Virus record (IMG/VR): IMGVR_UViG_3300024270_000002
DNA length: 64,000 nucleotides
Source: a virus
Lineage: Duplodnaviria; Caudoviricetes
Strand: one strand, 5' to 3'
A program made the translations under genes and the position numbers. Shown one piece after another: positions 25,111-25,992 of this stretch. The notes beneath the pieces are model-generated. The model was not told the origin of the DNA. It worked only from the letters and a program-made list of their open reading frames with translations, and did no database searches. How positions within the stretch are numbered: the stretch's first letter is position 1; the number at the start of each line of letters is the position of its first letter.

Positions 25111-25992
25111 GGGCCTGACCGATAACTTCCCGTAAGGGAATGAAAGAGGTAAACTGACAAGACCTCGCTGTGATGAGCAGTACCTCAGGCAATGTGTGAC
25201 GGGACCTGTAAGAATTGAAAAGATTCTTACGAATATGCTAACCCCATGTTCTAACTTATCAATGATGAAATGAAAAGAGTTTAGTTGAGGGTCAACTGAC
25301 TGAACTATTCTCGCTCTCGCAAGGAGCTGGCTTCAACGCAAAAGGATTTGATGAGGTAAGGTAAGCTACAGGAAGTAAAATAGTTCGAGTTTAGCAAGCA
25401 AGGGCGACTTCCATTTATATCTGCTACGGTGGGTATAAGAAATATGAGTACAATGCGACGGAAAGTATTGAAGGCGGGTAGCATTCTTGCACTCAAAAGG
25501 TGTGAGAACTACGACAATAGTCTGTCTTCTGTCAATCTCAACTTAGCGTGGGTTGGAATCCCACCCCGGGTGCCAATTTGATTTTAACACCTCGGGATAG
25601 TTCGCACCTATCCCTTATATACCCGGGTAGCTCAGTGCTAGAGCGGTTGTCATAGGAAAACAATGTCATGAGTAAAAATCTATTGTTAGAAACAGAGAAA
25701 AGTGTCTTAAGCCCACAGCTGGTAAGGCAATGTGGGATATAAGGTGTCACAAGCATCTTGTATTTGATTGAAATGAATCTATAGGGGTGTAGCAACCTCG
25801 AACAGCCCGCAAGGTTGATAGTGGAATGATAATCGAGTAGCTGTTTCTGTAAAGGCGTAAGCAAGCCTGGAGCCCTTGTGCTGGGGTGACGAATTGCAGG
25901 CATGAGCGGTACTTCCCAAAAGGAAGTGGAAAAGTGACTAAAAAATAAGGTCATTAAGTCGTAGCAACTGAAAGATATATTCTCAGTCTTTT
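25111..25992 (+). ncRNA. Large ornate RNA(s) (ROOL/GOLLD-like) flanking a permuted tRNA (3' half 25539-25575, 5' half 25621-25649)
   Basis: No credible ORF; promoter at 25091; cccgggt gcca pairs with downstream acccggg; both flanks end in a YCAAAAGG hairpin and then TCTCA. Confidence 0.55.

Follow-up and report, generated by a model that had tools for sequence, protein, structure and literature searches.

GOLLD is among the largest and most elaborate RNAs of bacteria and phages, and the structure of its cage was solved in 2025. To our knowledge its function is unknown; the only hints are its location in transfer RNA (tRNA) arrays and the fact that its linker occasionally houses a tRNA, read in print as stored or released cargo. 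Here we analyse a GOLLD locus in a stretch of 64,000 nucleotides (nt) of virus DNA, hereafter the window (Duplodnaviria; Caudoviricetes; IMG/VR record IMGVR_UViG_3300024270_000002). The locus is a phage GOLLD RNA with a tRNA-shaped module in the known variable linker of the family, and we show that this linker carries the complete module, with acceptor, D, anticodon-like and T arms and the elbow pair, in circularly permuted order.

The two-piece permuted transfer-messenger RNA (tmRNA) known from alpha-proteobacteria and cyanobacteria has its CCA-bearing acceptor 3′ strand ahead of the 5′ strand, and excision gives two paired RNAs; in Cyanidioschyzon merolae and some other algae and archaea, permuted tRNA genes yield ordinary free tRNAs through a circular intermediate. 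The YrlA Y RNAs of bacteria and phages contain a tRNA-like domain with permuted connectivity (Chen et al. 2014, PMC4201824; structure preprint 10.1101/312249). YrlA of M. smegmatis, with an acceptor stem of 7 base pairs (bp), is cut by RNase P both in vitro and in vivo, its 5′ half ending in CCA, and YrlA of S. Typhimurium and Yrn1 of D. radiodurans are uncut (PMC4201824). GOLLD itself is a giant RNA that assembles into hollow multimeric cages, as seen for the env-38 and S. agalactiae RNAs, and its linker, which points into the cage, sometimes holds an ordinary tRNA (PMC12286853, PMC12990946). Such ‘covalently linked tRNAs’ are described in PMC12286853, and a passage of PMC12990946, citing Morgado 2020, places a tRNA-Phe in linker J13/15 of a Mycolicibacterium GOLLD. 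A GOLLD of this ordinary kind is also found at 5582–6008 (−) of locus L064 (161.6 bits), with an amber-reading tRNA(CUA) in ordinary order at 5865–5938 in its linker; the 12-kb locus holds 27 further tRNAs and a tmRNA. A full-text literature search, outside which Weinberg 2009 and Morgado 2020 lie, turned up no publication that describes a permuted tRNA within GOLLD.

A scan of the whole window with the Rfam models returned GOLLD as the sole match other than tRNA. The RF02032 match lies at 25469–25989 on the plus strand, as do all features of the RNA described below, scores 160.1 bits against a cut-off of 150 (E 5e-43) and covers all of model positions 1–416 of 416. A first-pass annotation, made from the letters alone, had described an ~880-nt locus with two large domains flanking a permuted tRNA; the domains are real, but they are the 5′ and 3′ domains of GOLLD and not those of a new type of locus. 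Its suggestion that the flanks resemble ROOL or GOLLD accordingly stands for GOLLD and falls for ROOL, whose Rfam model gave no match at E ≤ 10 over 25100–26000, and the first ‘ctcaaaagg’ hairpin, which it had taken as the end of the 5′ domain, is actually the first helix of the Rfam model of the GOLLD 3′ half. The unit of ~887 nt has the layout of a GOLLD of at least 800 nt, with a variable 5′ domain, a variable linker and a conserved 3′ domain. The 5′ domain (25107–25468) lies upstream of the match and outside the Rfam model, and was assigned by position and by the published description of GOLLD (PMC12286853); it is 89% conserved among relatives and covered by RNA contigs. The first helix of the model, a long hairpin with a UCAAAAG loop (25469–25530; model positions 1–62), shows 94% pairwise identity, and the 3′ domain with its pseudoknotted core (25687–25989; model positions ~138–416, including the pseudoknot) shows 92.5% identity among relatives. 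Between them the inter-domain linker (25531–25686), which holds the module, appears in the cmscan alignment as a large insertion in the unstructured linker of the model. The RNA is flanked by tRNA-Glu(UUC) and tRNA-Glu(CUC) in a window with 31 ordinary tRNA genes (ARAGORN and Rfam scans), the phage and tRNA-array setting typical of the family. A blastn search (‘distant’ setting) with the 882 nt of 25111–25992 gave zero matches among 50,697 GenBank phage records.

Read along the chain, the module runs from the variable loop through the T arm, the acceptor 3′ strand, GCCA, a hairpin-bearing 45-nt spacer, the acceptor 5′ strand and the D arm to an anticodon-like arm. Its elements lie where the first-pass annotation had placed them: a 3′ half at 25539–25575 (caac, ttagc, gtggg-ttggaat-cccac, cccgggt, GCCA), a 45-nt spacer at 25576–25620 and a 5′ half at 25621–25649 (acccggg, ta, gctc-agtgcta-gagc, g, gttg). 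The variable-loop equivalent (UUAGC, 25543–25547), in which C48 partners G15, stands at the canonical 5-nt spacing ahead of the T stem and is invariant in relatives. It is followed by the T arm (GUGGG/UUGGAAU/CCCAC, 25548–25564), with G at position 56, and by the acceptor 3′ strand (25565–25571), the discriminator G73 (25572) and an encoded CCA (25573–25575), the GCCA being invariant in nine sequences. Beyond the spacer, the acceptor 5′ strand (25621–25627) forms 7 pairs with the 3′ strand and leads through U8 and A9 into the D arm (25630–25644; loop AGUGCUA, with C19) and G26; this stretch (25621–25645) shows 91.6% pairwise identity.

The fold emerges from two kinds of prediction: the minimum free energy (MFE) fold of the single sequence yields the T arm, acceptor stem, spacer hairpin and D arm, and RNAalifold on nine relatives gives the same helices without being supplied the structure. 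The spacings are canonical, with 2 bases between the acceptor strand and a D arm whose stem has 4 bp, a single base (position 26) beyond that arm and a variable loop of 5 nt, and the tertiary hallmarks U8, A14, G15/C48, G18, A21, G53:C61, T54, T55 and A58 are readable. The elbow is formed by C19 of the D loop and G56 of the T loop, a swap of the near-universal G19:C56; the ordinary tRNAs of the window have C56 and a D-loop GG in 31 of 31 cases. The tertiary nucleotides and elbow pair of a canonical tRNA are thus present in a chain that lacks the native cloverleaf order with free acceptor ends. As it stands in the RNA, the module was called as a tRNA neither by ARAGORN nor by the Rfam tRNA model (RF00005, to E ≤ 10 over 25100–26000). 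With the permutation undone, the join of 25621–25664 to 25543–25575 was called by ARAGORN at default settings as a 77-nt tRNA in six of seven relatives, nominally a tRNA-Pro with anticodon AGG. In one gut metatranscriptome run (X10), an RNA contig with a loose end at 25536 carries the strain variant UUAACUUAGUGUGGGUUCGAAUCCCACC, which gives the canonical C56 T loop (UUCGAAU); both forms of the elbow pair are thus present as RNA in gut samples.

Relatives of the locus were retrieved by degenerate patterns from IMG/VR (L088, identical to L089; L090; L097, identical to L098, on a 221-kb contig; and L099), from metagenomes (L091, L092, L094 and L095) and from a metagenome-assembled genome (MAG; L100, ‘uncultured Bacteroidales’). 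The IMG/VR relatives that were checked lie on viral contigs of 146 and 221 kb. Identity to the window over 25107–25993 is 90–94%, and the GOLLDs of L097, L099 and L100 score 155–156 bits and occupy the same syntenic place between tRNA-Glu(UUC) and tRNA-Glu(CUC). The L100 contig, of 19.8 kb, was binned in the Bacteroidales MAG; binning of phage contigs is weak evidence for a host, and we claim none.

Nine distinct module sequences were aligned and 29 pairs of a named structure counted. Standard pairs occur in 261 of 261 cells, compared with 35–54% when partners are slid by 1–3 columns, and 10 of the 29 pairs are changed on both sides, compared with 0–1 when slid; none of 500 shuffles reached that number. 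The compensated pairs comprise two in the T stem (both changed in L100), two in the acceptor stem, three in the spacer hairpin, two in the anticodon-like stem and the tertiary pair 19:56. In the acceptor stem, pair 3:70 occurs as C:G, A:U or G:C and pair 5:68 as G:C or C:G, and 19:56 is C19:G56 in seven sequences and the canonical G19:C56 in L097 and L099. Compensatory variants of the acceptor stem and hairpin recur in RNA contigs (25567/25625, 25569/25623 and 25595/25613). The tRNA halves are 91% conserved, on par with the GOLLD core (89–94%). Covariation of the halves in homologs had been set beforehand as the test on which the idea of a permuted tRNA at the core of a large structured RNA could fail, and the halves both pair and covary.

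The same data bear on the notion that the module is a non-functional relic, made of two tRNA gene fragments left by insertion of GOLLD into, or recombination within, a tRNA array. The locus does lie within a dense tRNA array, and in a sister phage the entire GOLLD block is missing from this site. A relic would, however, hardly show 10 compensated pairs, a tertiary one among them, with zero broken in 261 cells; the module is as conserved as the GOLLD core, the supposed fragments have acceptor strands that match and covary, and the divergence of 6–12% among relatives excludes assembly copies of one sequence. We regard this explanation as effectively refuted and the least probable of those considered.

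The point at which the tRNA is opened differs from what the letters first suggested. The first-pass annotation had combined a 7-bp acceptor stem, which pairs and covaries, with an anticodon stem of gttg (25646–25649) and caac (25539–25542), which does not survive comparison: in L088 the second base of gttg is C, leaving a C·A mismatch, and the same U-to-C change breaks the MFE alternative caauc/gguug. What compensates for this C in L088 is G in place of A at 25663, as part of a local hairpin at 25646–25664. That hairpin is the anticodon-like arm, with a 5-bp stem (GUUGU/ACAAU), a 9-nt loop (CAUAGGAAA), two compensated pairs and a one-sided G:U/G:C change. Since the 5′ half has its own covarying anticodon-like arm, the break of the permutation falls at the variable-arm position (43/44) and not in the anticodon loop. 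The module is closed by a 4-bp helix predicted by RNAalifold, CUCA (25537–25540) with UGAG (25669–25672), which is invariant in the nine sequences, so that covariation neither backs nor contradicts it; its predicted place corresponds, in topology, to the exit point of the long variable arm in class-II tRNAs.

The anticodon-like loop has 9 nt in most relatives and, as aligned, 13 nt in L100; only AGGAA is invariant in it, and U33 is replaced by A in L091 and L094; it is therefore no 7-nt loop with U33 and a purine at 37. A loop of 9–13 nt with a non-conserved U33 argues against decoding, and it weighs on the view that the locus is a true permuted tRNA gene, from which the tRNA would be excised at the closing helix, ligated into a circle, perhaps with the help of a phage polynucleotide-kinase-like protein and a ligase, and opened at the acceptor to give a free 77-nt tRNA. 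The tRNA-Pro(AGG) reading of the un-permuted join speaks for this view, as does a kinase of this kind encoded at 7469–8398. Against it, besides the loop length that differs in L100 and the A at position 33 in two relatives, L097 has an intact tRNA-Pro(UGG) and yet keeps the module, there is no bulge-helix-bulge motif and no ligase was seen, and no joined form, with 25664 linked to 25543, occurs among the joints of RNA contigs, which drop rare forms and leave small RNAs unsampled. We consider a permuted gene for a free tRNA highly improbable. The open reading frame (ORF) at 7469–8398 (+) has an AAA_33/polynucleotide-kinase-like N-terminal domain (Pfam E 4e-21; PHROG 505 ‘polynucleotide kinase’, E 3e-18), a hint that RNA repair or the healing of RNA ends may be encoded close to the tRNA array.

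To place the module among GOLLDs, we compared 76 other GOLLD loci from IMG/VR, picked by a motif of the 3′ domain. No permuted tRNA came up in the linker of any of these 76, whether strict or relaxed scripts or a covariance model of the module (R1) was used; the remaining R1 matches are neighbouring ordinary tRNAs or elements that lie elsewhere, at 11335–11452 of the window and 2862–2992 of locus L070. The permuted variant is thus apparently confined, in the sample examined, to one clade of large phages. The L070 element (2862–2992 (+); R1 37.5 bits), on a 204-kb viral contig ~1.2 kb downstream of the 3′ end of a GOLLD, has a T arm, an acceptor stem CUCCGCC/GGCGGAG and a D arm, and no CCA. Closer to the window, 11 loci (L001–L011) related through the neighbouring ORF at 27316–27876 (38–76% amino acid (aa) identity) contain no GOLLD, nor do five whole records. 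The sister phage L006 (220-kb record, 96% complete, 74% aa identity on that ORF) has the same tRNA order, and its syntenic site (9121–9751) lacks GOLLD, tRNA-Glu(CUC) and two tRNA-Arg. The absence of GOLLD from this 220-kb record is real, because the same search finds it in the records of L097 and L099. From this pattern of presence and absence, the GOLLD block is an accessory indel in this phage group.

All or part of the stretch occurs in 20 public runs, labelled as feces or gut metagenomes, many of them bovine, and six of them metatranscriptomes; four RNA runs from two studies were placed on 24900–26200. These RNA data are assembled contigs, in which ends, strand and the ratio of cut to uncut molecules are unreadable, rare forms drop out and small RNAs are unsampled. 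Summed contig depth is hundreds to more than 10,000 inside 25107–25993 and 0–80 in the flanks; together with the Rfam match and conservation, it delimits a full-length RNA of ~887 nt with approximate ends at 25107 and 25993. Ahead of the RNA, where the first-pass annotation had put a promoter, a consensus scan finds the promoter-like site TTAAAA-17 nt-TATAAT at 25073–25101 (10 of 12 matches), whose TATAAT block is kept in relatives, and RNA contigs start at ~25107–25121. No intrinsic terminator is predicted 3′ of the RNA end. Unbroken contigs pass through the spacer in three metatranscriptome runs from the two studies: X17 (25504–25825; depth 1173 and 911), X18 (25528–25825; 771 and 502) and X10 (25515–25683; 17.5). 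The RNA is therefore abundant in animal-gut metatranscriptomes, and uncut, spacer-containing molecules exist and are not rare. A dip in depth over the module in X10 and X16 (8–20 compared with 190–660) was considered as evidence of processing and set aside: high-depth contigs there stop at 25504–25536, with loose ends that carry strain variants, and resume at 25658–25686, which are the module borders and not 25575/25621.

Whether the acceptor end is processed separates the reading we favour, a permanently tethered tRNA mimic, from its main rival, with which it could coexist. In that rival, RNase P would cut at 25620/25621 and a 3′ exonuclease would trim to CCA-25575, giving a two-piece GOLLD whose parts stay paired: the 5′ domain with the T arm, acceptor 3′ strand and CCA, and the acceptor 5′ strand with the D and anticodon-like arms and the 3′ domain. 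The free CCA end would then be used, repaired by the CCA-adding enzyme, possibly aminoacylated and possibly bound by EF-Tu or ribosomes. The traits favoured by bacterial RNase P, namely an acceptor stem of 7 bp, U at −1 (25620) and the encoded GCCA, are all invariant, as is the A/U-rich trailer (AUUU) after the CCA in the nine relatives; all ordinary tRNAs of the phage likewise encode CCA, and M. smegmatis YrlA, cut by RNase P with a 5′ half ending in CCA, is a direct precedent (PMC4201824). Within the spacer, the 5′ linker part varies more than any other stretch of the RNA (55% identity), as expected if it is discarded, and depth over 25504–25825 in X17 and X18 is 2–5 times below that of the domain cores, a rough figure that may have other causes.

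Several observations pull the other way. Contigs run through the spacer at depths of 500–1200 in two runs of one study and of 17 in a run of the second, and the YrlA of S. Typhimurium and Yrn1 of D. radiodurans are not cut (PMC4201824). The spacer hairpin (25594–25614), with three covarying stem pairs and a conserved 7-nt loop, UU[C/A/U]GCAC (25601–25607), is selected for both structure and loop sequence, which would be odd in a discarded piece. Its stem is a copy of no anticodon arm among the tRNAs of the window; the loop pattern UU-NGC-AC fits anticodon loops of tRNA-Ala, the exact UUUGCAC occurring in one of 267 distinct phage tRNAs of the loci examined. Judged by this conservation, the spacer is more than neutral filler. 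Nor is an aminoacylation identity set recognisable (A1:U72, G73, no G3:U70, no G−1 and a non-canonical anticodon loop). On balance we hold a two-piece GOLLD to be less probable than the tethered mimic, though the likeliest of its rivals. Its fullest version, in which the module is cut by RNase P and trimmed to CCA, every protomer is two-piece and the cage bears a dozen or more tethered free acceptor ends, perhaps aminoacylated, we consider decidedly doubtful. If such a two-piece cage existed, it would be a multivalent particle of tRNA ends, maintained by the CCA-adding enzyme, and may capture or titrate EF-Tu, ribosomes, synthetases or defence toxins that target acceptor ends.

We favour the reading that the module is a permanently tethered tRNA mimic of the YrlA type and not a decoding tRNA, to which we assign a probability of roughly 55%. 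It is predicted to hang from the GOLLD chain by the short closing helix at the class-II variable-arm position; with both GOLLD strands attached there, the acceptor end, elbow and anticodon-like arm would be exposed and no tRNA-end processing could release the module. The permutation makes sense in these terms. A side branch on a linker needs its two attachment points together, and in an ordinary tRNA attached by its acceptor, RNase P and 3′ processing would release the tRNA and sever the GOLLD; moving the attachment to the variable-arm position makes end processing non-releasing. The most likely reading of this design is that it suits a tRNA-shaped ligand permanently tethered in every cage protomer and, if the published cage geometry applies, many copies of the module would be displayed in the cage interior. 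Most probably they would serve as a docking site or decoy for factors that read tRNA shape, such as RNase P, enzymes that add CCA or modify tRNA, or a tRNA-binding factor of host or phage. A fraction of the molecules may be nicked at 25620/25621, like M. smegmatis YrlA; the tRNA fold would then hold the two GOLLD pieces together.

A humbler role, as a protective or architectural element, would have the stable tRNA fold shield the floppy linker from endonucleases without being recognised as a tRNA. Chen et al. suggested the same role for the YrlA tRNA-like module (PMC4201824), the linker is the only long unstructured part of GOLLD, and most sampled GOLLDs lack the module, so that the cage can do without it. 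Stability alone, however, would not need the kept double change at 19:56, nor U8, A14, G15:C48, T54, T55 and A58; the invariant GCCA and the conserved 7-nt hairpin loop would be unneeded as well, and any hairpin would suffice. We therefore think pure protection unlikely.

Several points nonetheless count against a tethered mimic. The invariant encoded GCCA and U(−1) are easier to explain if the end really is processed, which favours the two-piece GOLLD, and the contig data give no ratio of cut to uncut molecules. The closing helix is invariant and so has no covariation support, and the nine sequences form a single clade, 88–94% identical overall, with few independent events per covarying pair. 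Cage formation by this particular GOLLD is extrapolated from published GOLLDs, and a module absent from all other sampled linkers cannot be general to GOLLD function.

If the tethered mimic is correct, its meaning lies in what this clade has kept. It cannot release the permuted tRNA, yet it retains the L-shape, the compensated elbow pair and the invariant CCA, an argument that the shape of the tRNA is itself a working part, tethered to the particle. This offers a concrete handle on the function of the GOLLD cage, turning a vague association with tRNAs into a testable question, and it extends the YrlA-type permuted tRNA mimic, so far tied to the Y RNAs of Ro60, to a second and much larger host RNA.

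Elsewhere in the window, at 11335–11452 (+), a Y-RNA-like element carries another circularly permuted tRNA as its cargo (YrlA 39.2 bits, against a cut-off of 69; R1 39.3 bits): its handle reads GA-GCCAA-U-ACU-UAUUUCU ... AGU-UUGGC-C, and its cargo runs through a T arm, the acceptor 3′ strand CUUGGCG, ACCA, one base, the acceptor 5′ strand CGCCAAG and a D arm. A further copy of the Y-like handle, GA-GCCAA-U-GCU-UAUUUCU ... AGC-UUGGC-C, lies at 25014–25070 (+) between tRNA-Glu(UUC) and the GOLLD promoter. Among the tRNA genes, HNH- or endonuclease-like ORFs at 16441–17280 and 19061–20131 (+; PHROG E 4e-21 and 4e-8) are possible homing elements that may shape the tRNA array.

Set against the described systems, the module shares with two-piece tmRNA the permuted gene order, in which the CCA-bearing acceptor 3′ strand comes first. 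Unlike tmRNA, it has no G3:U70, no tag reading frame and no pseudoknot ring, and it has a full D stem; no tmRNA-clan match at E ≤ 10 was found over 25100–26000 and ARAGORN called no tmRNA in the window, in agreement with the first-pass annotation, which had already set tmRNA aside. With the permuted tRNA genes of algae and archaea it shares a 3′ half upstream of the 5′ half and acceptor ends joined by an intervening sequence; unlike theirs, its outer ends run into GOLLD domains of ~430 and ~330 nt and its anticodon loop is non-functional in form. GOLLDs with an ordinary linker tRNA share the RNA family, the linker position, the phage and tRNA-array setting and a tRNA shape expected to face the cage interior. 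The window module, by contrast, has its 3′ half first and its own ends joined by a structured spacer; it is attached through the variable-arm position, not through the acceptor end, and its anticodon loop is non-canonical. End processing would hence nick the window GOLLD with the tRNA still held in place, whereas the same processing of an ordinary embedded tRNA would free that tRNA and sever the GOLLD around it.

YrlA is the closest in fold. The YrlA model (RF02553) matches with 30.3 bits over 25522–25672 and 28.2 bits over the core at 25540–25648 (E ~2e-4 in a small search), far below its cut-off of 69. Its permuted core is present: model positions 23–85 align with the closing stem, T arm, closed acceptor stem and D arm, the closing stem of the model lacking covariation support in the window module. 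The alignment is limited to these positions, the module flanks are GOLLD helices and no Ro60-binding stem was found; nor is the Y-like handle of the window phage (GA-5nt-U-RCU-UAUUUCU) present around the GOLLD module. Common to both are the succession from T arm through an end-closed acceptor stem to D arm, the tertiary hallmarks of tRNA and occurrence in phages, and with M. smegmatis YrlA the module shares the 7-bp acceptor stem. It departs from YrlA in keeping a separate anticodon-like arm, with the break at 43/44, whereas in YrlA the break stands in place of the anticodon arm, and in having an encoded CCA, an acceptor closed not by a small loop but by a 45-nt spacer whose hairpin is conserved, and GOLLD as its host RNA. 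Without a Ro60-binding stem, and with so low a score, the module falls outside YrlA; the best description is a tRNA mimic of the YrlA type that has been grafted into the linker of GOLLD. What was known is the GOLLD family and its ordinary linker tRNAs; what is new, as far as the literature search reached, is a permuted tRNA module as linker cargo.

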